A stretch of 64,000 nucleotides of DNA from the NCBI GenBank assembly GCA_016204995.1, contig JACQJR010000001.1:92548-156547 (forward strand). Direction: 5' to 3'. Source of the DNA: Candidatus Microgenomates bacterium. Lineage in GTDB: Bacteria; Patescibacteriota; Microgenomatia; UBA8517; JACQJR01. Under the pieces are notes generated by a model. The model saw nothing but the letters and a program-made list of their open reading frames with translations. It was not told the DNA's origin and did not search any database. The stretch's first letter is position 1. Every line of letters begins with the position of its first letter. Below are positions 1,627-56,763 of the stretch, piece after piece. Position numbers and translations under genes: made by a program.

Positions 1627-3228
1627 CTACGGAGCCACTTCTTGCCAGAGGCGGGAATGGCGGGAGAGGTCGCGGGGGAAAGTGAAGATTAAATCAGGAG
1701 CATATTCAATATACTCGGCCGGTTTAGTGTCATTTTTACCGTTTTGTCTGGTAGGATCCAAATCCCGTTGAAAATTAATGCCTGCCCAAGCAATTAAACT
1801 ACCCCTAACATATAATTGATCATCGCCGCTAGGGTTATGGCCGGTAGAAATAGTACCATTGGTAATAAATAATCCTTCCAGGGCTGGTTGGTTGGGATGA
1901 GAAACAGAGGGATCAATATTAATATTGCCGCTGACAATAGCCATAAAGAAACCCGTACCCTTATTAAGATTTATTTTACCGCCAATAGTTAAATTGCCAT
2001 TCACCAAAAGTATCACTTTTCTATCATTTAAATTTACCGTGGAGTTAATATTTAAATCACCATTACGATAATGCCAAACATAGCCACCCGATTCATAGCC
2101 GGAAATTAAATTGCCACCACTAATCTCCCCATCATTAATAATTGAACCAGAATCCGTAAACACTGCCGGCGGAGCGAGTGGGGCAAACCAGTTATAATTA
2201 AAAAATTTACCTTTATAGAACGATTTACCAATCCAGCCTTTAGAAGAAACACTACCGCTGCCAAAGGAACTATTGCCGCTATAAACAGCTATACCGGGGA
2301 ATCCCCCAGTTCCATCCTCAATCAGCTTTTTACCGGAAGGGAGAGCCGAGCTTATATCCCCATTGCTCCAAAAATCGGCATCCTTCCCCTGCCACCAGGG
2401 AGCCGGTTTAGAGCCTCCCCCGCCACCACAGCTATTACAATTAGTACTGCAACTACTTTCCGTGGTTTGATATGACTCACAAACATTATTAGTGCAACGA
2501 TAGCAAGTAATCGTGGGTCGACCCGCACAATTATCACAGTCAGTATTGCAAGGGTTGTCACTACTATAAGAAGTACAGGTATTATTCTGGCATTCATAAC
2601 AAGTATAATTATCTTGTCCACAGGAATTATCTTGCTGATTACAATCTCCTACATCATAACCGCAAACTCCGCTACCGTCTGACCAGGTATATTCCTTAAC
2701 ATGCTGACTTTTTTTATTACCGCAACATTGATTATATTCCCGATTATAATCACAGGTAGGACCAGGGGGAGGAGGACACCAACCACCACAACCGCCATCT
2801 TCTTGAGTACTATGAACATGGAAACTGCAATCGGTATGCCGATGAACTGTCTGACTCTGATTACACCCAATACATTCGTTATAAGTAGCCTCTTCGCAAG
2901 AAGGAGGAGGAGCGGGACTACAACCACACTCTTCGGCACAAGAAGAATGACCAGCCGCTGGATCGTTAGATTCACCGTTACAAAAATAAACAGGGTCACC
3001 AATCTCATCATAGTAAACACTACAAGTACCACTCCAAGCAATATTACACAATGCACCAGATGGATAAGAACAGCAATAATTATCCCCTGTATAACTACAA
3101 GGAATACCTATATCCTCTGGTCCGCAAGCGAAAATTCTTTGAGAGTTAGCACCGAAAATAACAAATAATAAAACAAAAATCCCTAGGAGGATACTGAAAT
3201 GGGAGAACAGGAGAAGGCTTCTCAACAT
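1627..3228 (-). CDS. Secreted/membrane-anchored cysteine-rich protein with a C-terminal beta-helix-like repeat domain (hypothetical)
   Basis: N-terminal hydrophobic signal/anchor (LLLFSHFSILLGIFVLLFVIF). About 45 Cys in ~230 aa (CxxC, CGC, CNxxC motifs). Gly-rich linker. C-terminal ~250 aa with G/N/I-rich repeats (GNLTIGGKINLNKGTGFF, SGNINIDPSVS) typical of parallel beta-helix. Track ORFs 2352..2621, 2649..3056 and 2701..3168 are shadow ORFs of this low-complexity gene. Confidence 0.6.
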   Translation of the reverse strand: MLRSLLLFSHFSILLGIFVLLFVIFGANSQRIFACGPEDIGIPCSYTGDNYCCSYPSGALCNIAWSGTCSVYYDEIGDPVYFCNGESNDPAAGHSSCAEECGCSPAPPPSCEEATYNECIGCNQSQTVHRHTDCSFHVHSTQEDGGCGGWCPPPPGPTCDYNREYNQCCGNKKSQHVKEYTWSDGSGVCGYDVGDCNQQDNSCGQDNYTCYECQNNTCTSYSSDNPCNTDCDNCAGRPTITCYRCTNNVCESYQTTESSCSTNCNSCGGGGGSKPAPWWQGKDADFWSNGDISSALPSGKKLIEDGTGGFPGIAVYSGNSSFGSGSVSSKGWIGKSFYKGKFFNYNWFAPLAPPAVFTDSGSIINDGEISGGNLISGYESGGYVWHYRNGDLNINSTVNLNDRKVILLVNGNLTIGGKINLNKGTGFFMAIVSGNINIDPSVSHPNQPALEGLFITNGTISTGHNPSGDDQLYVRGSLIAWAGINFQRDLDPTRQNGKNDTKPAEYIEYAPDLIFTFPRDLSRHSRLWQEVAP

Positions 3229-3231
3229 GGT

Positions 3232-3786
3232 TTATTTCTGTAAACGTTTATCGTAAATAAATTGATCACCTAATATTCTGTTTTTATTATCTGCAATAGG
3301 CTTAATAAATAAACTTCCATATAACTGAACGCCTAGTGGGATAACCTCTAGTTTGACAGCCGTAGCGCCACCCTGGCCATTCTCCTCTACGATATAAAAC
3401 TTCGTAGCTATTTTATCGTCACCCCTAGAAAGTCGGTTAGGCACAGTTAAGGTGTGACCACTAGAATCTTGCAAAACAATTTTGTCATCGTCTTTGGCAA
3501 TAAGCTTACCCTTTGCACCAACTCTCCACTCATATAATAAAGGATTTTTCAAAAGCTCCAAGCTAATCGGCAATTCTGGTTCTTTAACTTGTTTTTCTTG
3601 GGTGAATGATCTATTAGAAGGTTGAGCGGGGTTATTAATATCTTTTTGAGGAAGAATATAAGGACTACTAAAAATACCTATTACCAAACCTAGAAAAAGT
3701 GTTAAAAAGGAAATAATTATCTTAAGACTATTATCAGAACCAGTTTTAATTATGTTTGATGATTGTGGAGCAGTTTGATCCATCAA
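3232..3786 (-). CDS. Hypothetical membrane-anchored protein
   Basis: 184-aa ORF with a single N-proximal TM helix (IIISFLTLFLGLVIGIFSS) and a soluble C-terminal domain. Co-oriented and tightly packed with its neighbours. Confidence 0.45.
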   Translation of the reverse strand: MMDQTAPQSSNIIKTGSDNSLKIIISFLTLFLGLVIGIFSSPYILPQKDINNPAQPSNRSFTQEKQVKEPELPISLELLKNPLLYEWRVGAKGKLIAKDDDKIVLQDSSGHTLTVPNRLSRGDDKIATKFYIVEENGQGGATAVKLEVIPLGVQLYGSLFIKPIADNKNRILGDQFIYDKRLQK

Positions 3787-3836
3787 TTCATCATTACAGA
3801 AAATTCTTGTGATGTCAACCTAAAGAATAGAAGTTT

Positions 3837-4580
3837 TTAGGGAAGAGAACATTTGCAAATTCCTTCTAAATTCTTCTGGCCTGTTTCTCTAGACACTGAA
3901 ACATTACCACCTAGTGATTTATTAAGAATATTCAGATAAGAAGATATAAGAGTATCTTTACCAACCCCATTTAATCTTAATGTAAATTGTCTAGTAACAC
4001 CCGGAACCCTTATGGGAGCAGTAGGTGGACCATAAGATCCCTCTTTTGCAGTTAGAGTACCAATGATGGAGTTATTATTAACCACTTGTCCCTCTATATG
4101 TCTGTATGTTCCGTAGTCAATTGTAAGATTGTTCTGATTATGGTCTCCTAAAATTTGAGAATTAAAAAGGCGACCCCCAGCACTGTCAGAAGGATATGGA
4201 TCAAATACAATAAAGAATAATTTGTTACTATCCGGAATGATTCCAACCAGCATATCTCCCTCATCCTTCCCCTCATTCTGCACTTTACCCACATAAACAC
4301 CATAAGGTTCAAATTTTAATTTGTCAGGAGAAACAGTTGGCTCGGGAGAAGGGGTAGAAGTTGAAGTTGATGTTGATGTGGGCTCTGGAGTATTAGTATA
4401 TATTGGTTCTGGTGTGGATGGTTCAGCCTGCACAGAAGCAGGAATAGACTTATTCAGCCTAGAAAGGGCTGCGCCCACGCCTCCGGCTACACCAGCTGCA
4501 CCTAGTGTTCCCAATACTAATTTTTTTAAAAAATTACGGCGTGATATTTCTCTTTCCATATTTTCAACTAGGTTTACCAA
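3837..4580 (-). CDS. Hypothetical exported protein with a twin-arginine-like signal and Thr/Pro-rich linker
   Basis: N-terminus SRRNFLKKLVLGTLGAAGVAGG resembles a Tat signal (RRxFLK). Followed by a TPEPTSTSTSTSTPSPEPT linker and a ~170-aa C-terminal domain of unknown function. Confidence 0.5.
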   Translation of the reverse strand: MVNLVENMEREISRRNFLKKLVLGTLGAAGVAGGVGAALSRLNKSIPASVQAEPSTPEPIYTNTPEPTSTSTSTSTPSPEPTVSPDKLKFEPYGVYVGKVQNEGKDEGDMLVGIIPDSNKLFFIVFDPYPSDSAGGRLFNSQILGDHNQNNLTIDYGTYRHIEGQVVNNNSIIGTLTAKEGSYGPPTAPIRVPGVTRQFTLRLNGVGKDTLISSYLNILNKSLGGNVSVSRETGQKNLEGICKCSLP

Positions 4581-5538
4581 ACATTACCACACAAAGCAAC
4601 ATTTGAATAGGTTCTTCGAATTGTGGTCTAAAGTAATTTTTTTCTAACGCGCAACCAGAAGCTATTTGTGTCCAATCGCCCATTATTACATCTCTATGTC
4701 CAGCACTTGATAACCATTGATTTACACGCTGAGATAATACAGTAAGCCAATCACTTTGAGTTTTTAATAAATCTAGTCTAAGTAATGTATTAAAGCCTAT
4801 TATTTCGCTAGCCCTCCCTTTGTAGCCCTCCTCCGCCGCTCTACTATTGGGTGTACCCTTATATGAATGGGGGTCTCCGGCCAAAGTGGTCCATGAAAGA
4901 GTAGGATCAGCACCAGGGTGATCAAGCCATTTTATATCATGTAAATATAAAGCATATTTTTCAGCTGTTGATTGCAAAATTGAAGATTGCTCTAAAGGTG
5001 GAAGACCATTTTTTTGACGGGCTTGATTGATTAAATTAGACACTATTTTAGATTTACTAACATCTACTTGAAAAAAAAGCTCTTGACTAACATCTATTTC
5101 TGGTTTAGCGGTAAGTACAACTTTAGGCACGACAATTTCGGGAACTGCAGTAGCGGTGGGAGGGACTGCTGTGCGGGTAGGAATGGCAGGGGTTCTTGTA
5201 GGGGGCACTGCTGTTTCGGTAGGCACTTCCGTAGGTACCTCGGTAGGAGTGGCCGTGGCAGTAGCGGTCGCAGTGGCAATTTCTGTGGCTGTCGCAATAG
5301 GAACAATAGTTGGTGTATCTATGGGAAGAGGAGGAGCAGGCTCGGTAATTGGAATATTACCCATCGGGGGAGCTTCAGTGGGTGTCCAGGCATTGGCCTG
5401 AACTCGCAAGACTACACCAGTCAAAGCAGCAGCCGCAGCCGCAGCCAAAGTGGTGGCAGCGGCCAAAATTGGAATTTTGTGCTTTCTAACAGCTTGAGGA
5501 ATGGGTTGATTTTCGGCTGTAGCCATACTCTCCTCCAT
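4564..5538 (-). CDS. Membrane-anchored CAP/SCP (PR-1-like, YkwD-type) domain protein with a T/A/P-rich repeat linker
   Basis: TM helix ILAAATTLAAAAAAALTGVVL. Repeat linker (ATATEIATATATATATPTEVPTEVPTE). The C-terminal domain carries the CAP-domain hallmark HRDVIMGDWTQIASGCA (cf. HYTQVVW..GCA) and an upstream NQARQKNGLPPL motif. Track ORFs 5068..5544, 5094..5306 and 5156..5401 are shadows of the repeat region. Confidence 0.6.
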   Translation of the reverse strand: MEESMATAENQPIPQAVRKHKIPILAAATTLAAAAAAALTGVVLRVQANAWTPTEAPPMGNIPITEPAPPLPIDTPTIVPIATATEIATATATATATPTEVPTEVPTETAVPPTRTPAIPTRTAVPPTATAVPEIVVPKVVLTAKPEIDVSQELFFQVDVSKSKIVSNLINQARQKNGLPPLEQSSILQSTAEKYALYLHDIKWLDHPGADPTLSWTTLAGDPHSYKGTPNSRAAEEGYKGRASEIIGFNTLLRLDLLKTQSDWLTVLSQRVNQWLSSAGHRDVIMGDWTQIASGCALEKNYFRPQFEEPIQMLLCVVMFGKPS

Positions 5539-5540
5539 AT

Positions 5541-5837
5541 TTAATTATACCATATTTCTGCACTTTTGGCTTTAAATATGCTGGCCTTGGGATGGATTTC
5601 TTCTAAAGCAGCAATTCTTTCTTCCTTATCAGAAACTTGACCTAAACCAACTTCATATTCTATCTTCCTTGTTTCCAAATCTCCTATTAACTCATCCATT
5701 TTGTCATAAAATTCCTTCTTAGTAGGTAGATGATTAATCTTTTCGTTGATATCATCAAGCTCCTGTTTAACCTCAACCTTTACGGTTTCCTGCACAATTT
5801 CTTGAATTTTGATTAAGTCATTTTGAGTTAGTGCCAT
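5541..5837 (-). CDS. Small charged coiled-coil protein (hypothetical)
   Basis: 98-aa ORF, K/E-rich with heptad-like periodicity, no TM. Abuts the CAP-domain gene with a 2-bp gap. Confidence 0.35.
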   Translation of the reverse strand: MALTQNDLIKIQEIVQETVKVEVKQELDDINEKINHLPTKKEFYDKMDELIGDLETRKIEYEVGLGQVSDKEERIAALEEIHPKASIFKAKSAEIWYN

Positions 5838-6130: not shown

Positions 6131-7171
6131 TCATATTAGCGCTAGCCATAAACCGAAAATAGCCAGGAGTGCCCCCGCCAGCCAGGCCCGCATGACAATT
6201 TTGGGCTCTTCCCATTTAATAGCCTGCAGCAGCAGGTGAAATGGGGCAATGGGTAATACGGGATGGCCTAAAAATTTACGAGCCCCAATTTGAATAAAAC
6301 TGGAAAAAGCTTCAGCGATAAAAATTCCGCTAATTACAGCCACGGCAAAAATTTTCCCGGTCAAAAGACCAATAACAGCTAGGGTCGCTCCAAAAGCCAG
6401 TGCCCCAGTGTCCCCCATAAAAATCCGGGCCGGCCAAATATTAAAGTATAGAAAGGCAAATAAAGCACCAATCCAGAGGGCAATAAATATAGACAGGGGG
6501 GTATCAAAAACAGTTCCGGCAATAATCCATAAAGCAAATAAACAAATAAGCAAAAGTCCACCGGCCAAACCATCTAAACCATCGGTGATATTAACAGCAT
6601 TGGTAAATGCCACCATCACAAAGGCGGCAAAAGGTACATACCACCAGCCTAAATGGAATAGATTTTCCATAATCGGAATATGCACAATATCAATCTTTAA
6701 ATTGTTCCACATTAAAAATCCTATCGCGAGAGCAATGATCCATTGAGCAGCAAATTTCCATCTGCGGCCAATACCAAATATATTGCCCATTTGACCAGCC
6801 TTTGGTTTGCCAAAAAACTTCATTAAATCATCATAAAATCCCAGCAGTCCAAAACCGATAAAAGTCAAGAAAATAATTCTGACTTCGTCTACTAAAGGAT
6901 AAGCCGAAGAGATGGGTATGCCGAGCAAGGAAAAAGCGGGAAATAGTACTACAAATAATAATGACACTACGCTAATGATCAAGAGGCCTCCTCCCACTGG
7001 TGTACCCGCTTTCCAGTCATGCATTTTGTCAAAAAAGGGAATTTTCTTTTTATTTTTAGGGGCTTCGTGCCTGCGGGTAAACTTTAGCCGATAAAGCAAA
7101 TTAATAAAGGGAATGATTAAAATACTGGTGATGATGAAGGAAAATATTAATAGTCCTAAAGATAGTGCCAT
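6131..7171 (-). CDS. mraY: Phospho-N-acetylmuramoyl-pentapeptide transferase
   Basis: Ten-TM polyprenyl-phosphate transferase. Carries NAVNITDGLDGLAGG (MraY/WecA DGxDGL motif) and a DDLMKFFG aspartate motif. dcw context. Confidence 0.9.
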   Translation of the reverse strand: MALSLGLLIFSFIITSILIIPFINLLYRLKFTRRHEAPKNKKKIPFFDKMHDWKAGTPVGGGLLIISVVSLLFVVLFPAFSLLGIPISSAYPLVDEVRIIFLTFIGFGLLGFYDDLMKFFGKPKAGQMGNIFGIGRRWKFAAQWIIALAIGFLMWNNLKIDIVHIPIMENLFHLGWWYVPFAAFVMVAFTNAVNITDGLDGLAGGLLLICLFALWIIAGTVFDTPLSIFIALWIGALFAFLYFNIWPARIFMGDTGALAFGATLAVIGLLTGKIFAVAVISGIFIAEAFSSFIQIGARKFLGHPVLPIAPFHLLLQAIKWEEPKIVMRAWLAGALLAIFGLWLALI

Positions 7172-7180
7172 ATAATAAAA

Positions 7181-7290
7181 TTAACCTAATTGCTCTAATT
7201 GACCTAATTTCTAAATAATGACCAAGATTAGAAATTTTTCCTGATTTGGGATTTATTTAGGTAAATTAGGAATTAGAATAATTAGAAATT
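7181..7290. repeat. AT-rich intergenic inverted-repeat element built from TTCTAATT/AATTAGAA units (copy 1, murA-mraY spacer)
   Basis: ttaacctaattgctctaattgacctaatttctaa...attagaaatt...aattagaataattagaaatt. The left and right arms are reverse complements. The same unit recurs at 12684-12766, 18388-18500 and 30988-31078. Confidence 0.6.
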
Positions 7291-7295
7291 TTCGT

Positions 7296-8555
7296 TTATT
7301 CTACTCTTGTTATTTCTGCGCCTAATTTGGCAAGTCTTCCATCTAAATCCTCGTAACCCCGATCAATAATTTCAGCATGTTCAATAGTGGACTCACCATC
7401 AGCACCAAGAGCTGCTAACACTAGAGCCGAACCTGCTCTAATATCATTAGAGGGAATATTATCCGCCCGTAGTTTAGTCGGCCCATTCACCACGATCCGA
7501 TGTGGATCGGCAATGGTGATGTCCGCCCCCATTTTGATTAAATGATCCACGAAAAATATCCGCCACTCATACATCCAATCGTGACAGATCACAGTTCCTT
7601 TAGACTGCGTTGCCAAAACAATGAAGGGGCTCATTAAATCAGTGGGAAAACCAGGCCATGGCCTGGTTTGGAAAGTTTTGCGGTTTGCCGCTAGCTCTCC
7701 CGGCATAATTTCCAGTTGATTTTCACTCGTCTTATATTGCACTCCTAAATGTCCTAAATAAGCCAAGATCATTTTTAGATTTTTAGTAGTAACTTCATTA
7801 ATCGTGATATGGCCGCCAGTTAAGGCCGCCGCGATAGCAAAGGTGCCTACGTCAATATGGTCATCAATTACTCGATGAGTAGTGCCAATAAGTTCCTTTT
7901 TGCCGGTAATATTTAAAATATTAGTGCCTCCGCCGATAATATCAGCTCCAGTTTTACTTAAAAACTGCGCTAAATCCTGAATATGAGGCTCTGCCGCCGC
8001 ATCTTCAATCACTGTATTACCTTCAATATTAGCCCCTAAAATCAATCCCATGGCGGTAGCCGTCACCGAAGCTTCTTCTAAAAAGATCTCGGCCGGTTTT
8101 AAATTAGCCCCATCTAACTCAAAAACCCCATTACGCTCATCAATAGTTACCCCGAATTCATGAAGCAAACTAAAATGTGTATCCAGCAGACGTTCGCCGA
8201 TAGAATCTCCGCCCGGAGGAGTAATGGTGGCTTTTTTAAAGCGGGCTAGGAGCGGAGCCGCCAAAAGTACTGAAGCCCGGAATTTGCTCATTAGGGTTGG
8301 ATCTGTCTCCCATTTAGAAAGGCCGGAAGGATCAATTTTTAAAATGTTCGTACCTACACCCTCCACTTTTACTCCCAAACCTTCCAAAATTTGGGCCATA
8401 AACATCACATCCCGAATAATAGGCACATTGGTAAGGGTAACCGGGGAATTAGTCACCAGTGAGGCTGCCATCAGAGGAAGAGCGGCATTCTTGTTGCCGG
8501 CGGCGCTAATTTCACCTGTCAGGGCCTTACCGCCCTTAACCTTAAATTGAGCCAT
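7296..8555 (-). CDS. murA: UDP-N-acetylglucosamine 1-carboxyvinyltransferase
   Basis: N-terminus MAQFKVKGGKALTGEISAAGNKNAALPLMAASL matches the EPSP-synthase-fold MurA signature; length 419 aa. Confidence 0.9.
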   Translation of the reverse strand: MAQFKVKGGKALTGEISAAGNKNAALPLMAASLVTNSPVTLTNVPIIRDVMFMAQILEGLGVKVEGVGTNILKIDPSGLSKWETDPTLMSKFRASVLLAAPLLARFKKATITPPGGDSIGERLLDTHFSLLHEFGVTIDERNGVFELDGANLKPAEIFLEEASVTATAMGLILGANIEGNTVIEDAAAEPHIQDLAQFLSKTGADIIGGGTNILNITGKKELIGTTHRVIDDHIDVGTFAIAAALTGGHITINEVTTKNLKMILAYLGHLGVQYKTSENQLEIMPGELAANRKTFQTRPWPGFPTDLMSPFIVLATQSKGTVICHDWMYEWRIFFVDHLIKMGADITIADPHRIVVNGPTKLRADNIPSNDIRAGSALVLAALGADGESTIEHAEIIDRGYEDLDGRLAKLGAEITRVE

Positions 8556-8575: not shown

Positions 8576-9748
8576 CTACAGTTTTTCCGCCATTTTGACC
8601 AGCTCGTCAAATTTAAGTTTTCTGGAGGCCTTAAGAAGCATCACTACATTTCTATCCAAGCTATCTTTAATAGCCTTTTTTAAAATGTTTTCGCTAGGAA
8701 CAATAATAATTTGGTTATTTTTCATACCGCCGTTTCTTGCCCCTTCCACCAAAAATGGAGCAAATTGGCCAAAGCAGATTAAATTATCTATCTTTTTTTT
8801 AGCTACCCATTCCCCTACTTCTTGATGTCCCTTCTCTGTATAATCTCCCAGTTCCAACATATCTCCTAAAACCGCTGCAGTTTTTTTACCTTTACCAACC
8901 TCTATTAAGGTATCTATGGCCGCTTTGGCTCCTAAAGGACTACTATTATAAGTATCATCCAGAATGATGGCACCGCTTTTGGTAGTAACTGGTTGCAGCC
9001 GGTGAGGGGTTGGAATAAAACTTTCTAAACCCAACTTAATATCTTCAGGCTCTACATTAAAGGACAAACCGACAGCGGCGGCAGCCAAAGCTGCATAAAC
9101 AAAATGGGCCCCTAAAACTGGTAGAGTAATTTCAATTAATTGTTGATCAAAATTTAAGGTGAAAGTGGTTTGTAAATTAATAACTTTAATGTCTTGCGCT
9201 TTTATCTCACAACCGCGCCCTAAACCATATAAAATAACTTTAGCTTTAGTTTTTTCTGAAATCTGCTTAACTAACCGGTCATCTCCATTAACGATAGCTA
9301 AACCCTTTTGGGAAAGACCGGCAATTAATTTGCCCTTTTCGCGAGCAACTCCCTCAATATCACCAAAAAATTCTGTGTGGGTCCAATAAATATTAGTCAA
9401 AATGCCGATATCTGGTTTAGAAAGGGCTAGATAAAAATCCATATCCCCCTTATGGTCTACTCCCATTTCCAAAACTAGAACTTTAGTACCAGGGGTCGTC
9501 TTAAGAATAGTGGTAGGAATATTGTAAACCGGATCAATATTGGCGTAAGAGACACGTATTTTATATTTTTGCGACAACACAGAAGCAACCATTTCTTTAG
9601 TGGTAGTTTTTCCCACGCTGCCAGTAATGCCGATTACTTTTATGTCAGTAAATTTCTTTAGAAAAAATAAATAATTTTTTGCCAGTTGTCTTTTAACGGG
9701 ATGGTAAATTAGTTTTTTAATCATACTTTTAGAAAAGTTTTGGCCCAC
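8576..9748 (-). CDS. murF: UDP-N-acetylmuramoyl-tripeptide--D-alanyl-D-alanine ligase (short form)
   Basis: Mur ligase P-loop VIGITGSVGKTTTKEM and C-terminal AVLGDMLELG..GHQEVG motif typical of MurF. Shorter than usual at the N-terminus. Confidence 0.75.
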   Translation of the reverse strand: MGQNFSKSMIKKLIYHPVKRQLAKNYLFFLKKFTDIKVIGITGSVGKTTTKEMVASVLSQKYKIRVSYANIDPVYNIPTTILKTTPGTKVLVLEMGVDHKGDMDFYLALSKPDIGILTNIYWTHTEFFGDIEGVAREKGKLIAGLSQKGLAIVNGDDRLVKQISEKTKAKVILYGLGRGCEIKAQDIKVINLQTTFTLNFDQQLIEITLPVLGAHFVYAALAAAAVGLSFNVEPEDIKLGLESFIPTPHRLQPVTTKSGAIILDDTYNSSPLGAKAAIDTLIEVGKGKKTAAVLGDMLELGDYTEKGHQEVGEWVAKKKIDNLICFGQFAPFLVEGARNGGMKNNQIIIVPSENILKKAIKDSLDRNVVMLLKASRKLKFDELVKMAEKL

Positions 9749-10455
9749 ATATCAATTTCGCCCGCTATGGCTGCCGGCCGATGATAAGGCAAACTGTGTC
9801 CAATATTTTTAAATACCTTCAGAATAGACTTGGAAATTTGAGCTTTGGTTTGGTAAGCCAATGCTGGCGGTAAAATTTTATCACTTCCTCCCCAAAGTAT
9901 CAGCACTGGCATGGCAAGTTTTCCTAAATTATAGTAATTATCTCCTGAACGGATGCTGCGTAAAATAAGCCTATTCCAAAAACCACTAGGCATTTCATAA
10001 TAGTGCGACAAAACCCACTTTCTAATATTAGGAAACCAGATTAACATACCACCTAATAATTTATAAAAAAAGTGTTTTAGTGATGATGGAGAGGAAACAG
10101 TAGAGGAGCAAATTACTAATCCCCTTACATTTTTATCACCTAAGGCTAGCGCTGTGGCCACTCTACCACCAAAAGAATGACCAAAAACTATATAAGGCAG
10201 ATTTCCCCATTTGTCTTTGACAAAATTACTAATCACAGTCTTATAACCATCGGTTGTTAAAGGAATCTCCGGCTTAAACGATTTGCCAAAACCAGGTAAA
10301 TCAACCGCTAAAACATGCCATCCTTTTTTGACTAGATCACGAGCTAAAGGCCTAAACTTTTCTTTATCCACTGCCCAACCATGAATCAACACAATATTTT
10401 TCTCTCCCTGCCTGCGCAGGCAGGCCTCGCCTAATTCAAAATAACTTAATTCCAC
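9721..10455 (-). CDS. Alpha/beta-fold hydrolase embedded in the dcw operon
   Basis: IVLIHGW (HG oxyanion motif), GHSFGG nucleophile elbow, C-terminal His. Its N-terminal extension carries an in-frame copy of the 18-bp palindrome (ACLRRQ). Confidence 0.7.
   Translation of the reverse strand: MELSYFELGEACLRRQGEKNIVLIHGWAVDKEKFRPLARDLVKKGWHVLAVDLPGFGKSFKPEIPLTTDGYKTVISNFVKDKWGNLPYIVFGHSFGGRVATALALGDKNVRGLVICSSTVSSPSSLKHFFYKLLGGMLIWFPNIRKWVLSHYYEMPSGFWNRLILRSIRSGDNYYNLGKLAMPVLILWGGSDKILPPALAYQTKAQISKSILKVFKNIGHSLPYHRPAAIAGEIDMWAKTFLKV
10407..10424. repeat. 18-bp perfect palindrome CCTGCCTGCGCAGGCAGG, copy 1 (in-frame in the hydrolase CDS, encodes ACLRRQ)
   Basis: Exact 18-mer read from the sequence. 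The palindrome has no stop codon in any frame. Confidence 0.8.
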
Positions 10456-11354
10456 ACATCCCCTTCAAAACCAATTAATTGAACTTCTGGTTCAAGAGCA
10501 ATCCCAAATTTTTCCTGCACTTTTTGTCTATAAACTTTCGCCAGTTTCACGAAATCTGCCGCCGTGCCACCGCCACTATTGATAAATAAATTACCATGCC
10601 AGGTAGCAATTTCTACCCCATCTTCCCGCGCTCCTTTGGCCCCGACTTCTTCCAATAACCAACCTGCCGGAATTTTACCAAACATAATCTTATCCGCCGG
10701 AATTCTGTCTAAAATATCCTGCGTTAATTTAGCCGCTTCTACATTTTTGAAAAAACTGCCGGGACAAGCGAGACCCGGATGATATCTAATTAATCTCTGT
10801 TGCATAATTTCTTGTGACGTTTTAATTAATTGAACACTATCTGCCGTGGCCGTTATATCAAATGCCGCCTCTAAAATAATTTCTCCAGTTTCTTTAAATC
10901 TGCTATGACGGTAAGATAAATTACATTCCGCGCGAGTGTATTTTTTTAGTTGATCCTCATGTGAATCGTATATCTGTACCCATAAAATTTTATCGGCAAT
11001 AGTTTGGCCGTAAGCTCCAGCATTGCCATAAATAGCTCCGCCAATTGTGCCGGGAATACCAACTAGCTTCTCAAAACCAGCTTTGCCTTTTTCATTAGCC
11101 CATTCCACAAGTGTTGCCAAATCAGTCCCCGATCCCACCGCCTCATTGATGGCAGTATAGGAATTTTTGATGACCAGTCCTTCAAAACCGCTGTCTGCCA
11201 CCAATAAATTACTGCCTCCGCCGATCACCAAGTAGGGCATTTGACCAGTTTGAGCTTTTCTAATTTCTTCTACCAGCCCTTCCTTAGTCTTTGCCTCTAC
11301 CAATTCGCGAATATGGCCGCCAATTTTAAGAGTAGTGATTTCGGAAAAGTTCAT
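10446..11354 (-). CDS. murB: UDP-N-acetylenolpyruvoylglucosamine reductase
   Basis: FAD-binding N-terminus TLKIGGHIREL...YLVIGGGSNLLVAD and the MurB C-terminal domain. Start overlaps murC stop by 4 nt. Confidence 0.88.
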   Translation of the reverse strand: MNFSEITTLKIGGHIRELVEAKTKEGLVEEIRKAQTGQMPYLVIGGGSNLLVADSGFEGLVIKNSYTAINEAVGSGTDLATLVEWANEKGKAGFEKLVGIPGTIGGAIYGNAGAYGQTIADKILWVQIYDSHEDQLKKYTRAECNLSYRHSRFKETGEIILEAAFDITATADSVQLIKTSQEIMQQRLIRYHPGLACPGSFFKNVEAAKLTQDILDRIPADKIMFGKIPAGWLLEEVGAKGAREDGVEIATWHGNLFINSGGGTAADFVKLAKVYRQKVQEKFGIALEPEVQLIGFEGDVWN

Positions 11355-12664
11355 TTAATTAAATGATATATTTGAAAAATATCGCCCGCACCTAATGTTA
11401 AAACTATATCACCAGGTTTAACATTAGTCTTAATCCATGATAGTATCGCCTTTTTGTCACCCGTATAAAAAGTATTGGTATGATTTTTCTTAATCTCTTC
11501 TGTTAATAATTCTCCTGACATACCTAAATCATCTGTTTCGCGAGCTGAAGCATATATATCCATAATTGCTACCATATCGGCATCACTAAAACTTCTTGAA
11601 AATTCAGATAGTAACGTCTTGGTTCGGGAATAAGTATGCGGTTGAAAAATTGCTACCAACCTCTTTTCTGGAAAATTTTGCTTAACTGCCGAAAGTACTG
11701 ATTTAATTTCGTGGGGAGTATGGGCATAATCATCATAAAAATCTGCTCCACGAAATTTCCCCATTTTTTCAAAACGGCGTCTCGTTCCAGTAAATTTTAC
11801 CAGTCCCTTTTTAATTTTTTCCTCACTTATATCGTAAAATCTAGCCACTTCGGCGGCTGCCGAGGCGTTTAATTGATTGAAATCTCCCAACACTTTAAGT
11901 TTAAAGTCACTCAAAGTATAATTTTTTACTGGGATAGATAAATTTTTAATTATTTCCATTATATTTTGATTATTTTCATTGGCAATTAATAATCCATCTG
12001 GTGGAACTTTGGCAAAAAATTCGCTAAAAGCTTTTTTGGTATCTTCTATGGTTGGATAAATATCCGGATGGTCGTGTTCAATATTAGTCGCTACTATCAC
12101 TTTGGGTGATAATAAAGAAAAACGTGGTCTATTATCTACCCCCGGTGAAATAGCAAATTCATCCGCCTCGGCCACAAACACTTTTCCTTCTTTATCATAT
12201 TTACCTGGTGCGCCTAATGAGTGGATATCACCAACACCTATTGCAAAGGAGGGGTGTAATCCGGCCGCCGCAAAAATATTAGCAATCATGGCCGAAGTAG
12301 TTGATTTACCACCCACCCCGCAAACGGCGATTGTTTCTTTACCACTTGCAAATTCTGCTAGAGCTTCAGCGTGAGTCATAACCGGAATTCCCATTTCGCG
12401 TGCCGCCACCACTTCGGGATTATTTAAACCACCATGAGCTCCAGTAGTAATTAATAATTCTGGTTTAGGCTTTAAATTTTCTTTATTAAAACCAATTTTC
12501 CAGGAAATTCCTCGCCTTTTTAGGGTTTCATCAGTCACAAACACCTCTGCTATATCACTACCAGTCACCTGAATTCCCAAATCTTGAGCACACAAGGCCA
12601 AAGCAGTCATACCGACTCCTTTAATCCCTGTAAAGTGGATAGTATGTAAGTTTTTTATATTCAT
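11351..12664 (-). CDS. murC: UDP-N-acetylmuramate--L-alanine ligase
   Basis: HFTGIKGVGMTALA (MurC N-terminal HFIGIGGxGMS-type motif), P-loop CGVGGKSTTSAM, DxYAHTPHE C-terminal motif. Confidence 0.88.
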   Translation of the reverse strand: MNIKNLHTIHFTGIKGVGMTALALCAQDLGIQVTGSDIAEVFVTDETLKRRGISWKIGFNKENLKPKPELLITTGAHGGLNNPEVVAAREMGIPVMTHAEALAEFASGKETIAVCGVGGKSTTSAMIANIFAAAGLHPSFAIGVGDIHSLGAPGKYDKEGKVFVAEADEFAISPGVDNRPRFSLLSPKVIVATNIEHDHPDIYPTIEDTKKAFSEFFAKVPPDGLLIANENNQNIMEIIKNLSIPVKNYTLSDFKLKVLGDFNQLNASAAAEVARFYDISEEKIKKGLVKFTGTRRRFEKMGKFRGADFYDDYAHTPHEIKSVLSAVKQNFPEKRLVAIFQPHTYSRTKTLLSEFSRSFSDADMVAIMDIYASARETDDLGMSGELLTEEIKKNHTNTFYTGDKKAILSWIKTNVKPGDIVLTLGAGDIFQIYHLIK

Positions 12665-12683
12665 AAAAACAAATTTAAATTAA

Positions 12684-12766
12684 CCAATTTCTAATTGTTC
12701 TAATTTCTAATCAAATCTCAATTCCCAAAATTTTAGGTCAATTAGGTTAATTAGAAATTAGAAATT
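12684..12766. repeat. AT-rich intergenic inverted-repeat element (copy 2, murE-murC spacer)
   Basis: Left arm aatttctaattgttctaatttctaat, ~30-bp spacer, right arm attaggttaattagaaattagaaatt. The arms are near-perfect reverse complements, giving a MITE/REP-like long hairpin. Confidence 0.6.
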
Positions 12767-14079
12767 TTATCCCCCATTCTTTTTACCCCTCCTTTCAGCG
12801 ATACTCTGGCTGCTTCCTGATCTGACCAGGGGTATTCCATATTATCAATGGCCATAGATCTTTCGTGGCCTTTGCCGCAAAGAGCAACAATATCACCCGG
12901 GGCAGCTAATTTTTGAATTGCCAAGGCGATCGCTTCACCTCTTTCCGGTACTTTAACCACCCATTTCCCGCCTTTTCTCCAATTAGTCTGTCCGTCCCAA
13001 ACTTGAGCCTCTTGCCTAATACCGCGCGTTATATCATCAATAATCCGTTCCACATCTTCTGTCCGGGGATCATCAGCCGTCAGTATAATAAAATCAGCCA
13101 ACTTTGCGGCCGCCTTCCCCATCAAAGGACGCTTTCCTAAATCCCGTTGACCAGGACAGCCAAATGCCACAATTAGTTTACTCTTAGGAGGTTTTATTTT
13201 ACCCAGGGCTGTCAGTAAATTTTCCAAAGATCCCGGCGTATGAGCAAAATCCACTACCACAGTAAATTTTTTCCCTTCATTTATTACTTCCATTCTACCC
13301 CTTAAACCGGCAAAACTACTAACTGCCTCTCTAATTTTATCCCAAGCCACATTTAAACTTCTCACTGCTCCAGCCGCCGCTAAAATATTCGCCGCGTTAT
13401 ATTCACCGATCAATTTAGTCTGGAAATTCATACTTTTACCTTCTGCCTTAACCTCAAATTCCATTCCACCAGGAGTTAAGTTGACACTTTTATATACGAT
13501 CATAGCATGTTTTGATACATCATAAGAACCATAAGAGATGATTTTAGCATCACTACTAGCTTTTTGTTGTAAATAATCAAACGATGGGTCATCTTGATTT
13601 AACACTGCCACTTTAACTCCCCTTAATAATTTTGCTTTAGCCTCCCGATATCTCTCAAAAGTTTTATGATAATCAAGGTGTTCATGGGTGATATTAGTTA
13701 CTACTCCTATCTTAAAATTACCACCCAAGACCCGATGCTGGTCTAAACCATGCGAAGTGGTTTCTATCACGACGTGAGTGACACCTCTCTGCCGAGCTTG
13801 AGCAAGGATTGATTGCATAACCCGCGGATCAGGAGTAGTCACATGCAAACCGGTATCAATTTCTTCACCATCTAAAAACGCCCCTAAAGTAGAAATTACG
13901 GCTGTTTTATAGCCAGCAATACTTAAAATATGACCGATTAAATGAGTGGTGGTGGTTTTGCCATCAGTACCTGTTACTCCAATGACGGTCAAATCGCGAG
14001 CCGGATAGCCATTTTTAATAACCTGCCAAACAGCTGTTAAAAGATGCTGAAAATTCCGCCACCGGCCGTAGAGATTCAT
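12751..14079 (-). CDS. murE: UDP-N-acetylmuramoyl-L-alanyl-D-glutamate--2,6-diaminopimelate (or L-lysine) ligase
   Basis: VIGVTGTDGKTTTTHLIGHIL P-loop and Mur ligase C-terminal domain. Positioned after ftsI, as in canonical dcw order. Confidence 0.88.
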   Translation of the reverse strand: MNLYGRWRNFQHLLTAVWQVIKNGYPARDLTVIGVTGTDGKTTTTHLIGHILSIAGYKTAVISTLGAFLDGEEIDTGLHVTTPDPRVMQSILAQARQRGVTHVVIETTSHGLDQHRVLGGNFKIGVVTNITHEHLDYHKTFERYREAKAKLLRGVKVAVLNQDDPSFDYLQQKASSDAKIISYGSYDVSKHAMIVYKSVNLTPGGMEFEVKAEGKSMNFQTKLIGEYNAANILAAAGAVRSLNVAWDKIREAVSSFAGLRGRMEVINEGKKFTVVVDFAHTPGSLENLLTALGKIKPPKSKLIVAFGCPGQRDLGKRPLMGKAAAKLADFIILTADDPRTEDVERIIDDITRGIRQEAQVWDGQTNWRKGGKWVVKVPERGEAIALAIQKLAAPGDIVALCGKGHERSMAIDNMEYPWSDQEAARVSLKGGVKRMGDKISNF

Positions 14080-14091: not shown

Positions 14092-15837
14092 TCATTGTGA
14101 AGGACTAATTCCTAAGTAAGGGAAAAGGTCGCGAGCGATCGCAAACCAGGTGGGGGCGGCGGTTTGCGAGGCCCAGGGAGAAGAAGAAGGCTCCTGCAAA
14201 CTGACCAGCATCACAAATTGGGGATTTTGAGCCGGGGCAAAACCAATGAAAGAGGCGACAGTTTTTTTGCTGTAGTGACCAGCTAAGGGAACTTGGGCTG
14301 TCCCAGTTTTTCCGGCCACCGCAAAACCGGGAATAGCCAATCGTCTGGCTTCCCCGAGTTGGACTGCTTTGGTCATCATCTCGCTAATTTCACTGGCGGC
14401 TTTTTCACTAATTACCCTACCTTCATCGCGAACGGGAATAGATTGCGACCAGCCATCCCCGGTAATTTTATCTACCACTCGCGGGATCGGTAAAATGCCA
14501 TGATTGGCAATGGCCGCGGCTGCCCGAGTAAATTGAATAGGCGTCACCGCCACTCCCTGGCCAAAAGCAGAAGTAGCTAAATCCACGCTCGTCCACGCAC
14601 TTAATGGCCGTAGAGTTGGACTTTCTTCTTCCTGCAGATCAATACCAGTAATTCGTCCTATACCAAAACGACTAAGATAATCCAACAGTTTTTCTTGACC
14701 CAAACGTCTCACAGTAAAAACCATACCAGTATTATCGGAATGGATAATAGTCTCGGCCATAGTGGTATTAGGAAAATATTTATTGTCCCCCGTATGAATT
14801 TGGTATTCTGCTACCGAAACCGGCCCAGAACAGTTATCGCACTTGGTCTTGGGAGTAACTGCTCCGCTATCAAGAGCTGCAGCCATCACCAAAATCTTAA
14901 AAATTGACCCTGGTTCAAAAGCGTCGCTGACAATTGGATTTTTAAATAAAGTTGGATCAGATTGATTGTATTTGGCGGCATCATAGGAAGGCAAACTAGC
15001 CGCCGCCAGAACTTCACCCGTTGGCTTCATCACCACTACACTGCCGCCTTTAGCCCCATATTTGTCCATTGCCTCCTGTAAATGTTTAACCGCGGTATAC
15101 TGAATTGTTCTATCAATAAAAGTCACAATATCCAACCCTTTTTGCGCCCCTATTTCGCTCAATAGCCCAAAAGGAATGGGGTTACCCCGTAAATCTTTTT
15201 CTTCTCGCCTGATACCCTTTTTGCCAGACAAAGTGACATCATAAAATCCTTCCAAGCCAAAATAACCTTCTTCCCCGGTTTCGCTTTTACCGACAAAACC
15301 CAATAAATGGGCTGCCATTGTCCCTTCGGGATAGTATCTGGACTCTTGAGCCGTCCAACCTAAATCATCAAAATGCAACCCGTTTATTTTATTTTTGGAC
15401 TCGTCAGACACTTTATCAGCCAGCGATACCCAACGTAAATCTTTATTTGCCAAAGCTTTTTTCAGTTTAGCCTCTTGAGTGGCCACCAAAACAACTCTGG
15501 CGCTACCCGTAGCTAACTGATCTTCGTTATCAGCCAGAAGAGAGGCTAAAATATGAGCTAAATCATCTTTGTTTTCTTTAATTTTTTGGGGATCAGTCCA
15601 CATCTGCCAGTTAATTTGGGAGGTGGCTAGCGGCGCTCCGTCACTAGCTAAAATTGCCCCCCGATGCGCACTAATTTCTACACTGGTTACGTGTTGGGCC
15701 CGAGCGTATTTTGATAACTCTCCATTTTTCAGAATCTGCCAGTAGAAAAGTCGTAAAATTAAGAGACTAAAGCAAATCAAAAAAAGAATATTTATCAGCC
15801 GAAAGCGACTATTAAACAATGATAACTCTTTGACCAT
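14092..15837 (-). CDS. ftsI: Penicillin-binding protein / peptidoglycan D,D-transpeptidase
   Basis: N-terminal TM anchor. Transpeptidase motifs SxxK (GSIFK), SxN (HSDN) and KTG (AGKTGTAQ). Follows ftsL-like gene. Confidence 0.88.
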   Translation of the reverse strand: MVKELSLFNSRFRLINILFLICFSLLILRLFYWQILKNGELSKYARAQHVTSVEISAHRGAILASDGAPLATSQINWQMWTDPQKIKENKDDLAHILASLLADNEDQLATGSARVVLVATQEAKLKKALANKDLRWVSLADKVSDESKNKINGLHFDDLGWTAQESRYYPEGTMAAHLLGFVGKSETGEEGYFGLEGFYDVTLSGKKGIRREEKDLRGNPIPFGLLSEIGAQKGLDIVTFIDRTIQYTAVKHLQEAMDKYGAKGGSVVVMKPTGEVLAAASLPSYDAAKYNQSDPTLFKNPIVSDAFEPGSIFKILVMAAALDSGAVTPKTKCDNCSGPVSVAEYQIHTGDNKYFPNTTMAETIIHSDNTGMVFTVRRLGQEKLLDYLSRFGIGRITGIDLQEEESPTLRPLSAWTSVDLATSAFGQGVAVTPIQFTRAAAAIANHGILPIPRVVDKITGDGWSQSIPVRDEGRVISEKAASEISEMMTKAVQLGEARRLAIPGFAVAGKTGTAQVPLAGHYSKKTVASFIGFAPAQNPQFVMLVSLQEPSSSPWASQTAAPTWFAIARDLFPYLGISPSQ

Positions 15838-16123: not shown

Positions 16124-17014
16124 TTAAATCCTTTCCGCTATCCTTAATTTGGCGCTTTTCGCGCGGGGATTAGCCGCAATCTCCGCCTGACTTGGCCTAA
16201 TTGGTTTTTTAGTCAAAATTTTTAAATTATCCATCGCTTCCTGTTCTTTAAAAAAATTTTTAATAATGCTGTCCTCTCCCGAATGAAAACTAATCACTAC
16301 CAGCCTTCCTCTCTTGCCTAAAATTTCTACCGCACCTTTTAATCCCTCTTTTAAATTTTCCAATTCTCTATTTACCGCTATCCTCAAGGCTAAAAAAATT
16401 AAAGCTAGCGGACTAATACTTCTTTTCCGGCCTGCCTGTACTCTATCAATTACCGCCACCAGATCGCGAGTTTCCTCAAACTTTTTTAGCTCTCTGGCGC
16501 GGACAATAGCACGAGCAATTGTGCCAGCCACGTTTTTCGGCACAGTTTGGCTAAATAATTCATTTAATTGATCCTCTCTTAAGCTGTTTAACAGGTCGGC
16601 TGCCGTTACACCTTGAGCTTGCGGATTCATTCTCATATCCAACAGGTTGCTTTGAGTGAAAGAGAAACCTCGCGCACTGCCAAGCTGCGTGCTGGATATG
16701 CCTAAATCAAACAGCACTCCATCTACGGGCACGAAATTATGCTCCTTAGCCACTTCGGTGATCTTTGCGAAATTAGAATGGGCAAAAACAACATCAGGAC
16801 TCGCCTGCGCAGGCAGGCAGGATAAAAGATGTTGTCTAGCCGTCTCCAAGGCTTCTTTATCCCAATCCATCGCCAGTACTCTGGCACCTTGTTCACAGAT
16901 AGCCCTGGTGTGTCCTCCGCCACCTAAAGTTGCGTCTATGTACCGACCTTGTTTTTTAATGTGCAAATAATCTACTACCTCTTTAATTAATACCGGGATA
17001 TGGTTACTTTCCAT
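16124..17014 (-). CDS. rsmH: 16S rRNA (cytosine1402-N4)-methyltransferase RsmH (MraW)
   Basis: HIPVLIKEVVDYL, SAM-binding DATLGGGGH, and LLDMRMN motifs. Contains an in-frame palindrome variant (CLPAQAS). Confidence 0.9.
   Translation of the reverse strand: MESNHIPVLIKEVVDYLHIKKQGRYIDATLGGGGHTRAICEQGARVLAMDWDKEALETARQHLLSCLPAQASPDVVFAHSNFAKITEVAKEHNFVPVDGVLFDLGISSTQLGSARGFSFTQSNLLDMRMNPQAQGVTAADLLNSLREDQLNELFSQTVPKNVAGTIARAIVRARELKKFEETRDLVAVIDRVQAGRKRSISPLALIFLALRIAVNRELENLKEGLKGAVEILGKRGRLVVISFHSGEDSIIKNFFKEQEAMDNLKILTKKPIRPSQAEIAANPRAKSAKLRIAERI
16802..16821. repeat. Palindrome family variant CGCCTGCGCAGGCAGGCAGG inside rsmH (in-frame, encodes LPAQA)
   Basis: Core GCCTGCGCAGGC is perfectly palindromic; extended by CAGGCAGG. 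Confidence 0.6.
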
Positions 17015-48453: not shown

Positions 48454-48619
48454 AATTTAATCCAATTAATAAGATAACGCCTAGGAAAATGAAATAAAAA
48501 TAATTAACCAATTTATTAGCTAACCCAAAGTGATTAGTATAAATTAGAGCAGCCAACAAAAAGAATCCTCCTAGCACTAACAATTTTAGAAACATCACGT
48601 AATTATATCAAAGCGAAGA

Positions 48620-49153
48620 TTAAGGAGCGGTATTAAGTCTTTCAATATCTTGCTTAACGTAGTTAACATCATCCTCTACAAATCTCCATTCTGCTGTAGT
48701 AGGGTGATAAGTATCTCTCAAGGCGTTTAATAGTAAAATGTGTTTTCCGAGGTCTTCTTTAAGCTCTTGATACTTTCCAGAAATTTTATTAGAAACAGCA
48801 AGATCAGTTAATTTGCCGGCCGTTGTAAAGTATCGTTGGGTAGCTTTTTCAAAAAAACCCATTTGTTTATTGTCAATGATATATTTTAATTCCGCCATTC
48901 GGACGTCAGTTTCCTTTTTCAATTGCTTAAACTTTTGATCCGAGGAAAAAGCAAAGAAAAGAGCGATTTTTTCTTTTAATCTTTTTAAGATATACTGGGT
49001 ACCATTATCTGGATTAACAGTTTCATAAGAAATAGCGGGCATGGGGACAGGGGTTGGAGTAGGGGCAGGGGACATTTTCGCCATTATCTCTCCTACACTT
49101 AAAATTCCCAAAGATAGCACTAAAAAGAAAGTAATAGTAACTTTTCTAATCAT
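48620..49153 (-). CDS. Hypothetical secreted protein
   Basis: Signal peptide/anchor (ITFFLVLSLGILSVGEIMA), PTPTPVP linker, helical C-terminal domain. Confidence 0.4.
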   Translation of the reverse strand: MIRKVTITFFLVLSLGILSVGEIMAKMSPAPTPTPVPMPAISYETVNPDNGTQYILKRLKEKIALFFAFSSDQKFKQLKKETDVRMAELKYIIDNKQMGFFEKATQRYFTTAGKLTDLAVSNKISGKYQELKEDLGKHILLLNALRDTYHPTTAEWRFVEDDVNYVKQDIERLNTAP

Positions 49154-49172
49154 GGCTTAATATTAAATTAAC

Positions 49173-53704: not shown

Positions 53705-53705
53705 G

Positions 53706-54716: not shown

Positions 54717-54767
54717 AAATCACTTTTAAGCATTATATATGATAATATCTAAAATGTAATTATTAAA

Positions 54768-56760: not shown

Positions 56761-56763
56761 AGA

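Follow-up and report, generated by a model that had tools for sequence, protein, structure and literature searches.

The gene considered here lies at positions 1627..3228, on the minus strand, of a 64,000-nucleotide stretch of a Candidatus Microgenomates genome (contig JACQJR010000001.1, positions 92,548 to 156,547; the whole stretch is called the window). We propose, with a probability of roughly 0.55, that its 533-residue product is a Sec-exported modular surface adhesin, whose C-terminal solenoid and terminal peptide would dock it to a pilus tip complex or to the cell envelope. The proposal draws on two resemblances: (i) an organization like that of the pilus tip proteins PilY1 and PilC, in which a Sec signal is followed by a variable N-terminal region and then a conserved C-terminal domain, and the gene is located among those of minor pilins; and (ii) a solenoid similar in fold class to those of ComZ and cyanobacterial PilX. 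A preliminary description of this DNA had treated a cysteine-rich region as the key feature of the protein. The conserved, family-defining part is instead the C-terminal solenoid, and the cysteine-rich region is a swappable cassette. The features of the gene are as follows.

1627..3228, minus strand: the family gene, the open reading frame (ORF) under study, 533 amino acids and a stop codon (ORF list and translation)
3142..3228, minus strand: Sec-type signal peptide or signal anchor, residues 1-29 (MLRSLLLFSHFSILLGIFVLLFVIFGANS), the sole hydrophobic segment of the protein
2920..3126, minus strand: first cysteine-rich segment, residues 35-103, 10 cysteines, without detectable relatives (cysteine positions)
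2776..2910, minus strand: six-cysteine module B (PPPSC..YNEC..C...), residues 107-151, a tandem duplicate of module C
2620..2766, minus strand: six-cysteine module C, residues 155-203, common to the unrelated secreted protein P0040
2422..2607, minus strand: two tandem six-cysteine modules, residues 208-269, pattern C-x2-C-x4-C-x8/9-C-x3-C-x2-C
2413..2427, minus strand: Gly5 linker, residues 268-272, joining the cysteine region to the C-terminal domain (direct sequence reading)
1630..2406, minus strand: cysteine-free, three-faced beta-solenoid domain, residues 275-533 (homologue alignment and AlphaFold2)
1630..1647, minus strand: near-invariant C-terminal motif W-Q-E-V-A-P, residues 528-533

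The C-terminal domain and its family

All 39 first-round homologues of the 533-residue protein (the query) align only to its residues ~275-533, and the aligned domain, here the C-domain, is always C-terminal. Over residues 275-533 the query is 35-57% identical to 33-36 homologues, and W278, Q280, W528, E530 and P533 show little or no variation. The C-domain is ~260 residues long, starts with W-[WF]-Q and ends with W-x-E-[VI]-x-P-COOH, a pattern that the query fits; G, S, N and I are abundant in the C-terminal half of the protein. The family is defined by an alignment (A3), and a profile built from 33 trimmed domains was run against 1.84 billion sequences. At E <= 1e-3 it retrieved 5,200 cluster representatives, of which 1,389 also pass E <= 1e-30; the family size of ~5,200 is a number of clusters at 50% identity. 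Matches in reference genomes belong mostly to Woesebacteria, Blackburnbacteria, Microgenomatus and other Microgenomates or Patescibacteria, with a few labelled as Chloroflexi. On the C-domain, all Pfam and NCBIfam models stay below their thresholds, and a profile search against PDB sequences gave noise only. In the literature searched, no paper describes the solenoid family, DUF7305 or cysteine-rich pilus-linked proteins in Patescibacteria.

DUF7305 (PF23981) is the sole Pfam model with signal on the C-domain. It matches 17 of 33 members at E <= 1, with a best value of 7.7e-5, and one of 79 members at E <= 1e-3; the match covers central solenoid coils, ~75 of the 260 residues. The query scores 13.7 bits as a full protein and 15.5 bits with the domain alone, against a curated cut-off of 27, and its assignment to DUF7305 was rejected.

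Modelled alone with AlphaFold2, the C-domain forms a solenoid with three strands per turn and coils of ~20 residues, at a predicted local distance difference test score (pLDDT) of 91.6 and a predicted template modelling score of 0.89. Its best Foldseek matches in the PDB are the DUF3494 ice-binding solenoids (probability up to 0.97, template modelling (TM) score 0.31-0.43), and a library of viral structures also returned DUF3494 proteins (E = 1.3e-3, probability 1.0). These proteins, also known as IBP-1 (FfIBP, 5UYT, 6BG8, 6EIO), are the best matches in both libraries, at probabilities of 0.91-1.0 and E values from 1.3e-3 to 4e-2, and share with the query a three-faced right-handed solenoid with ~20-residue coils. 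Sequence identity is 10-12%, the Pfam model Ice_binding is not matched, the long flanking helix of IBP-1 is absent from the query, which has short helices only, and nothing in the query points to ice binding. The query lacks the defining features of DUF3494, and its membership was rejected. Foldseek also matched ComZ (TM score up to 0.43 normalised to the query, probability 0.35-0.57), and the ComZ solenoid is itself closest to that of FfIBP (PMC6561018), which matches the query too. The beta-helix-like domain of the preliminary description is therefore a beta-solenoid, but one that resembles the ice-binding and ComZ type and not the pectate-lyase-like type. The latter was rejected, since pectate lyases, pectin methylesterases, Ag43 and most tailspikes match at probabilities of <= 0.03, and there is no Pfam match.

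The tail of the C-domain is a candidate docking peptide. In A3 its W, E and P never vary, nearly every member ends in W-[KRQE]-E-[VI]-A-P, and 163 family proteins end in variants of W-x-E-[VI]-x-P. Despite this conservation, the tail is the least confident part of the C-domain model (pLDDT 50-68).

The remainder of the protein is variable across the family. The query has the family layout, namely a Sec signal, a variable and usually cysteine-rich N-region, and a C-domain whose cysteines are absent or paired; the cysteine content of its N-region is 14.6%, against a family median of 6.7%. In other members (A6, P0041-P0119) the N-regions contain Big_2 (16 of 79), fn3, SdrD_B, PA14, Laminin_G_3, GLEYA, TSP_1 or Hint domains. 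The position of the head is thus filled with domains such as the SdrD_B and Big_2 repeats of Gram-positive adhesins, along with TSP_1, fn3 and PA14. The N-terminal heads are freely exchanged among members, and their repertoire is one typical of adhesins and lectins. Matches to Hint, pretoxin-HINT or intein-splicing domains are found in the N-regions of two of the 79 members (A6), which hints at possible autoproteolytic or polymorphic-toxin-like modules in part of the family.

Linkage to type IV pilus genes and likeness to pilus tip proteins

Type IV pilus markers were defined as PilB, PilT, PilC, PilD and PilM, taken from locus L005, together with a recurrent PilX_N-type protein of 297 residues. 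In 12 of the 23 reference-genome loci with full flanks, such markers are located no more than 10 kb from the family gene, and the same distance applies in 8 of 12 metagenome loci, which are independent and non-redundant (P < 1e-4 for each set at a generous background of 15%). Combined, the family gene is inside a pilus cluster in 20 of 35 full-flank loci, counts that are not phylogenetically independent. The linkage is also specific in position. A gene for the PilX-like minor pilin is within ~5 kb of the family gene in most pilus-linked loci, and often adjoins it. In a recurrent layout, pilD, pilC, pilT and pilB are located 4-10 kb to one side of the family gene and pilM 2-6 kb to the other. 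The cassette with the family gene is placed between the pilX-like gene and the minor pilins in L013, L017 and L018, and between pilM and the pilX-like gene in L101, L102 and L115. In L005 (10001-14610), two tandem paralogues of 845 and ~691 residues, which have different N-regions, stand directly beside pilB of a complete type IV pilus operon. No PilY1 homologue is present among the Pfam matches of the pilus clusters that hold the family gene. The Microgenomates pilus clusters of L013, L017, L018, L102 and L115 contain ~6-9 pilin-type genes each, and they hold the conserved PilX_N-type protein (~279-299 residues), which has conserved cysteines.

The family shares several properties with PilY1/PilC of Pseudomonas, Neisseria and Myxococcus. 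Those proteins have a Sec-type, non-prepilin signal, as does the query, and join a conserved C-terminal domain to an N-terminal binding region that varies, as does the family. They form paralogues with different heads, like the tandem pair of L005, and are encoded among minor-pilin genes, just as the family gene is next to pilX-like in many genomes. However, the C-terminal domain of PilY1/PilC is a seven-bladed beta-propeller, whereas that of the query is a beta-solenoid in the AlphaFold2 model, with no sequence relation between the two. The family gene is, moreover, antiparallel to the pilus operon, and the window copy is outside any pilus cluster. Membership of the query in PilY1/PilC was rejected, as the Pfam domain Neisseria_PilC / PilY1 is not matched and the propeller is absent.

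A second comparison is with ComZ, the competence tip pilin of Thermus thermophilus (PDB 6QVI), and with cyanobacterial PilX, both of which are linked to type IV pili and have a triangular solenoid like that of ice-binding proteins, although the match of the query is weak. The solenoid of cyanobacterial PilX has been proposed to be a pilus tip plug that replaces PilY1 (preprint 10.64898/2026.02.12.705559). In ComZ and PilX the solenoid is inserted in a pilin fold with an N-terminal pilin helix, whereas that of the query is C-terminal and the family's solenoids follow a cysteine-rich or Ig-type head. The query was not accepted as a pilin of this type; the G/A-F-T-L-I-E-type motif of neighbouring pilins is absent and no pilin helix or sheet precedes the solenoid. 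ComZ binds DNA, and nothing in the query points to DNA binding. A PilY1-like adhesin has likewise been suggested for Saccharibacteria, in the form of a non-canonical PilX2 that carries a beta-propeller (PMC12206443).

The exported, cysteine-rich head

The ORF is exactly where the preliminary description had placed it (1627-3228); it is on the minus strand and encodes 533 residues, but the public annotation differs. NCBI HY404_00545 has 474 residues, which are 100% identical to the ORF product from residue 60 on. Its start is an internal TTG at codon 60, and the signal peptide and first five cysteines are thereby lost. We prefer the 533-residue call because an independent gene call of that length is present on a 6.5-kb Logan contig, because it gives the architecture of the family, and because its ATG is 4 nt past the upstream stop. 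The public start is thus 59 codons too late and hides the signal peptide. Family member P0003 appears to be truncated too, with 477 residues annotated against an ORF of ~700 residues with a signal in L006. Three further ORFs (2352..2621, 2649..3056 and 2701..3168) are wholly inside the 533-residue ORF, and their translations are of low complexity and rich in V, I, L, T and R. Because of these translations, and because they are located entirely within a well-supported ORF, we consider them to be artefacts, as the preliminary description did; it had called them antisense, which is true only of 2701..3168, the other two being in other frames of the same strand.

Export is indicated by the N-terminus. 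The anchor that had been described there is a single hydrophobic helix, modelled at residues 2-26 (pLDDT 82-94), and the 533-residue protein has no second hydrophobic segment. In most homologues the corresponding segment is a canonical AXA signal peptide, and in the query a putative signal peptidase I cleavage after G26 or S29 is plausible by the -3/-1 rule.

The query has 34 cysteines, all of them in residues 35-267 (14.6% of 233 residues) and none in residues 268-533. The extreme cysteine richness reported earlier is real, but the count of about 45 was too high; the Gly linker reported after the region is indeed present, as G5 at residues 268-272. Other ORFs of the window have 0-6 cysteines each (non-nested ORFs of at least 90 residues at other gene positions), and the cysteine density of the query is far beyond chance. 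By segment the cysteines are divided 10+6+6+6+6, so that every module has an even number. Modules B and C are related by duplication, with a local alignment of residues 107-147 to 155-203 scoring 63, against 28.8 +/- 6.4 in shuffles (z = 5.3). The two modules of residues 208-269 are more similar still to one another (208-236 versus 240-269, z = 9.7; none of 500 shuffles scored as high). The structure of this region is predicted with little confidence: residues 35-103 are mostly below a pLDDT of 50 except for a hairpin at 68-84, and beta-hairpins at 210-221 and 240-255 are of low confidence.

Two of the module types are found elsewhere. Residues 158-204 are 66% identical over 47 residues to residues 71-117 of P0040, with all six cysteines kept. 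P0040 has a signal peptide and SdrD_B/SpaA Ig-like domains and is without a C-domain. This 47-residue module was the sole match of the cysteine region in a local BLAST search with composition correction. A homology search with the cysteine region by itself had no matches, but its negative outcome carries no information, as not even the database entry of the protein was retrieved, probably owing to composition filters. The module type of residues 208-269 recurs once, as a single copy, in family member P0099. Given the recurrence in P0040 and P0099, the modules are small cassettes shuffled among secreted proteins. Metagenomes scanned with the full-length query yielded no close relatives, and no Pfam cysteine-rich family matches the modules at E <= 1 in a search of the whole protein, where the weak DUF7305 match is the only one. 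As small tandem six-cysteine units shuffled among secreted proteins, shown by the module shared with P0040, the modules are analogous to EGF, TNFR, granulin and TSP1 modules. However, the query matches none of the Pfam profiles for EGF, TNFR, granulin, TSP1 or keratin-associated proteins; TSP_1 occurs only in other family members. The cysteine spacings of EGF, TNFR and granulin are, we presume, unlike the C-x2-C-x4-C-x8/9-C-x3-C-x2-C and C-x7/8-C-x0/2-C-... of the query.

That the modules are disulfide-bonded is well supported, if indirectly, by export, by the parity of cysteines across the family, by their paired gain and loss, and by their spacing. Of 120 complete members that have an N-terminal signal, 101 carry an even total of cysteines. 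The C-domain has zero, two or four cysteines in 160 of 163 members, which means that they are gained and lost in pairs. The distance between adjacent cysteines across the family peaks at 3-6 residues, not at 2, and CxxC occurs on average 1.1 times per member. In the query, each duplicated module has six cysteines, and Tyr and Trp are frequent in the region. The prepilin-like pilins encoded at the same loci have 2-10 cysteines each, always an even number, and together with the conserved cysteines of the PilX_N-type protein this fits routine disulfide formation in exported Microgenomates proteins. Disulfide-rich extracellular modules in an exported modular protein, as the preliminary description had it, are accordingly the best reading of the export signal, parity and spacing. 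The oxidizing compartment with a Dsb system that it also envisaged is consistent with an MdbA-like thiol-disulfide oxidoreductase, often adjoining VKOR, among the protein families enriched in the candidate phyla radiation (CPR; Méheust et al. 2019, PMC6744442), but a Dsb-type gene is absent from the window. A further claim, that the protein is rich in NxS/T sequons, does not hold, because eight sequons are observed versus 6.8 +/- 2.3 in composition-preserving shuffles (P = 0.36).

A very improbable alternative is that the cysteine region binds metal, as zinc-ribbon-like knuckles or a metallothionein-like scavenger, and is not disulfide-bonded. The earlier statement that metal-type spacing is lacking was correct for CxxCxxC, which is absent, but there are five CxxC motifs, and in each of the two tandem modules (208-269) CxxC-x17/18-CxxC gives a zinc-ribbon-like spacing. 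There is in addition an HxH...HxH cluster at residues 129-139, and many CPR bacteria live under anoxic conditions, where disulfides are harder to form. However, the His cluster is not kept in the duplicated module, no Pfam metal-binding family matches at E <= 1, and the richness in Tyr and Trp is unlike metallothioneins. The signal peptide, without a further hydrophobic segment, points to export, and the even parity, the paired gain and loss, the 3-6-residue spacing peak and the low frequency of CxxC per member all fit disulfides better than metal. The parity statistics of the family make it a clear example of the export, by ultrasmall and often anaerobic bacteria, of proteins in which disulfides, up to dozens of them, are probable, and this raises the question of their route of oxidation.

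Setting in the window and function

In the window, the family gene is inserted in the division and cell wall (dcw) cluster, between mraY and murD. The genes and sites around it are listed below.

16124-17014: mraW, dcw cluster
14092-15837: ftsI, dcw cluster
8576-14079: several mur ligases and murB, dcw cluster
7296-8555: murA, dcw cluster
6131-7171: mraY, dcw cluster
1627-5837, same strand: insert of five genes for exported or membrane proteins, splitting an otherwise canonical dcw cluster
3790..3818, minus strand: promoter-like site TTGACA-17-AATGAT with TG, upstream of n184 (consensus scan), which is weak evidence because such sites are in total no more numerous than expected from shuffling
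3232..3786, minus strand: n184, a 184-residue bitopic membrane protein, upstream of the family gene (ORF list)
231-1589: murD, dcw cluster, with ftsW and murG beyond the window

From mraY, the insert encodes a 98-residue protein, a CAP-domain protein, a 247-residue protein, the 184-residue bitopic protein n184 and the family protein. The stop of n184 is 4 nt before the ATG of the family gene, and the two are therefore probably co-transcribed. No terminator-like site was found between the family gene and murD. The n184 protein is an orphan, with no homologues in 5.8 billion sequences. A transmembrane-anchored protein of 170-255 residues directly precedes the family gene in ~15 other loci as well. 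Across loci, these upstream partners form small clusters with partial homology and no detectable overall homology; judged from the sequences, the conserved upstream partner is an architectural resemblance only.

The other proteins of the insert have features of their own. The 98-residue protein has a homologue near the family gene in L017 (E = 7e-7), and the CAP-domain protein carries a Pro/Thr-rich linker. The 247-residue protein (3837-4580, minus strand) begins with a twin-arginine translocation (TAT) signal, for which TIGR01409 scores 22.3 bits against an NCBIfam domain cut-off of 16.7, followed by a Ser/Thr/Pro-rich linker. TAT export in a CPR bacterium is perhaps worth attention.

Farther away is a glycan-biosynthesis locus of more than 40 kb (~21400-64000), with at least ten GT1, GT2 or GT4 glycosyltransferases, three PMT_2 enzymes of the GT-C class and a flippase, and further with DUF4012, a Bac_transf priming transferase, a GDP-mannose dehydratase, epimerases, methyltransferases and a carbamoyltransferase. 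This giant glycosylation locus, which the preliminary description had placed beside the gene, is real and large, but it starts ~18 kb away, and the true neighbours are genes of peptidoglycan synthesis. A Bro-N domain gene is located within the locus on the opposite strand (27612-28448). In its distal part (46000-64000), G+C drops from ~0.39-0.44 to 0.30-0.34, which suggests a horizontally acquired or rapidly exchanged segment. The window has a strong strand bias, with nearly all genes on the minus strand and a negative GC skew in 30 of 32 segments.

How might the protein function? The observations show a modular, exported protein in which a conserved C-terminal solenoid is combined with an exchangeable binding head. 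Under the proposed scheme it would be extracytoplasmic after export via its Sec signal, and the cysteine modules of the head would be knotted by disulfides. The solenoid and C-terminal tail would dock the protein to a conserved surface structure, most likely the tip or minor-pilin complex of the type IV pilus and otherwise the envelope, and the variable head would be the exposed end that binds a ligand or host. The protein would then be a functional analogue of PilY1/PilC, built on a solenoid of the fold class of ComZ and cyanobacterial PilX. Because the window copy is in the dcw cluster and its subclade is not pilus-embedded, an envelope-mounted role is for this copy about as plausible as a pilus-mounted one.

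Several observations weigh against the proposal. There is no type IV pilus gene (PilB, PilT, PilC, PilD, PilM or PilX-like) anywhere in the 64-kb window, and the closest relatives with informative flanks, in L006 (56% C-domain identity) and L009 (49%), are not pilus-linked. The family gene runs in the opposite direction to the pilus genes, and is therefore not co-transcribed with them; and the synteny counts, as noted, lack phylogenetic independence. The query has neither a prepilin signal nor a pilin fold. A distant relationship between the C-domain and the PilX-like protein of 297 residues was rejected (hhalign probability 0.1%). The fold matches are weak, with TM scores of 0.3-0.43 and none at a Foldseek E <= 1e-3 against the PDB, and the cysteine region is modelled at a pLDDT of only 30-50. 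With regard to disulfides, a screen by motif and transmembrane criteria for thioredoxin folds and VKOR returned only PilD and pilins, and found no Dsb, MdbA, VKOR or thioredoxin-fold candidates in the window or the reference-genome loci L001-L046.

Two other functions have to be weighed. One possibility, to which we give odds well short of even, is an envelope-anchored surface protein independent of pili, with a solenoid that attaches to peptidoglycan, to a polymer of the wall or to a partner in the membrane, for example the bitopic protein encoded upstream; it would be a wall-mounted adhesin or a structural component of the envelope. The dcw setting of the window copy between mraY and murD, without a terminator before murD, is in keeping with this idea, as is the locus of the closest relative, P0003 (L006), where the gene is among the envelope genes WecG, signal peptidase, UppS and LytR-CpsA-Psr. 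Pilus genes are, moreover, absent from 15 of the 35 full-flank loci, and the transmembrane-anchored protein just upstream in ~15 loci could be such a partner. In the pilus-embedded cassette of L017, a VanY-type D-Ala-D-Ala carboxypeptidase (7032-8051, plus strand) is encoded two positions upstream of the family gene, which is another tie of the family to cell-wall functions. However, none of the known wall-binding domains (SLH, LysM, LPXTG, CWB) was detected, the upstream partners are not demonstrably homologous across loci, with n184 an orphan, and this idea would not account for the link to pilX-like and pilM, both strong and position-specific, that is seen in more than half of the loci.

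The other function, which we consider unlikely, is that the solenoid is itself the effector, either as a module that binds or cleaves glycans, in the manner of pectate lyases and tailspikes, or as an adhesin of the ice-binding type, with the cysteine region as a rigid stalk only. Beta-solenoids are often polysaccharide lyases, hydrolases or binders, and polysaccharide binding had also been proposed in the preliminary description. Pectate lyases, tailspikes, tapirin and Ag43 are among the low-ranking Foldseek matches, but for pectate lyases and tailspikes the low probabilities given above apply, and no Pfam glycosidase, lyase or Beta_helix model matches. The C-domain has conserved acidic residues (D16, E236, E239 and E261, domain numbering), but Gly, Trp and Pro make up most of its invariant positions, a sign of structural roles. 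Finally, the N-regions of other members are binding domains of the lectin or Ig type and not stalks, which places ligand specificity in the variable part.

A more specific version of the modular adhesin, which we offer as speculation, is that the family is the missing tip adhesin or plug of Microgenomates type IV pili. It would be a Sec-exported non-pilin that docks in trans onto the PilX-like cap pilin through the solenoid, of the ice-binding type, and the invariant W-x-E-V-A-P tail, while the hypervariable head, disulfide-knotted or of the lectin or Ig type, would set the choice of host or surface made by the episymbiont. Extra copies such as that of the window would then supply alternative heads. 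What would be new here is a putative pilus-associated solenoid adhesin that is free-standing and not fused to a pilin, although an adhesin of this sort would be of an already known kind.

Finally, we note what such a family may mean for the biology of these organisms. CPR bacteria, or Patescibacteria, are thought to live attached to hosts, and type IV pili are central to this lifestyle. The family described here is large and is without a passing Pfam or NCBIfam model. With its pilus-linked solenoid and exchanged heads, it provides testable candidates for determinants of host specificity in Microgenomates.

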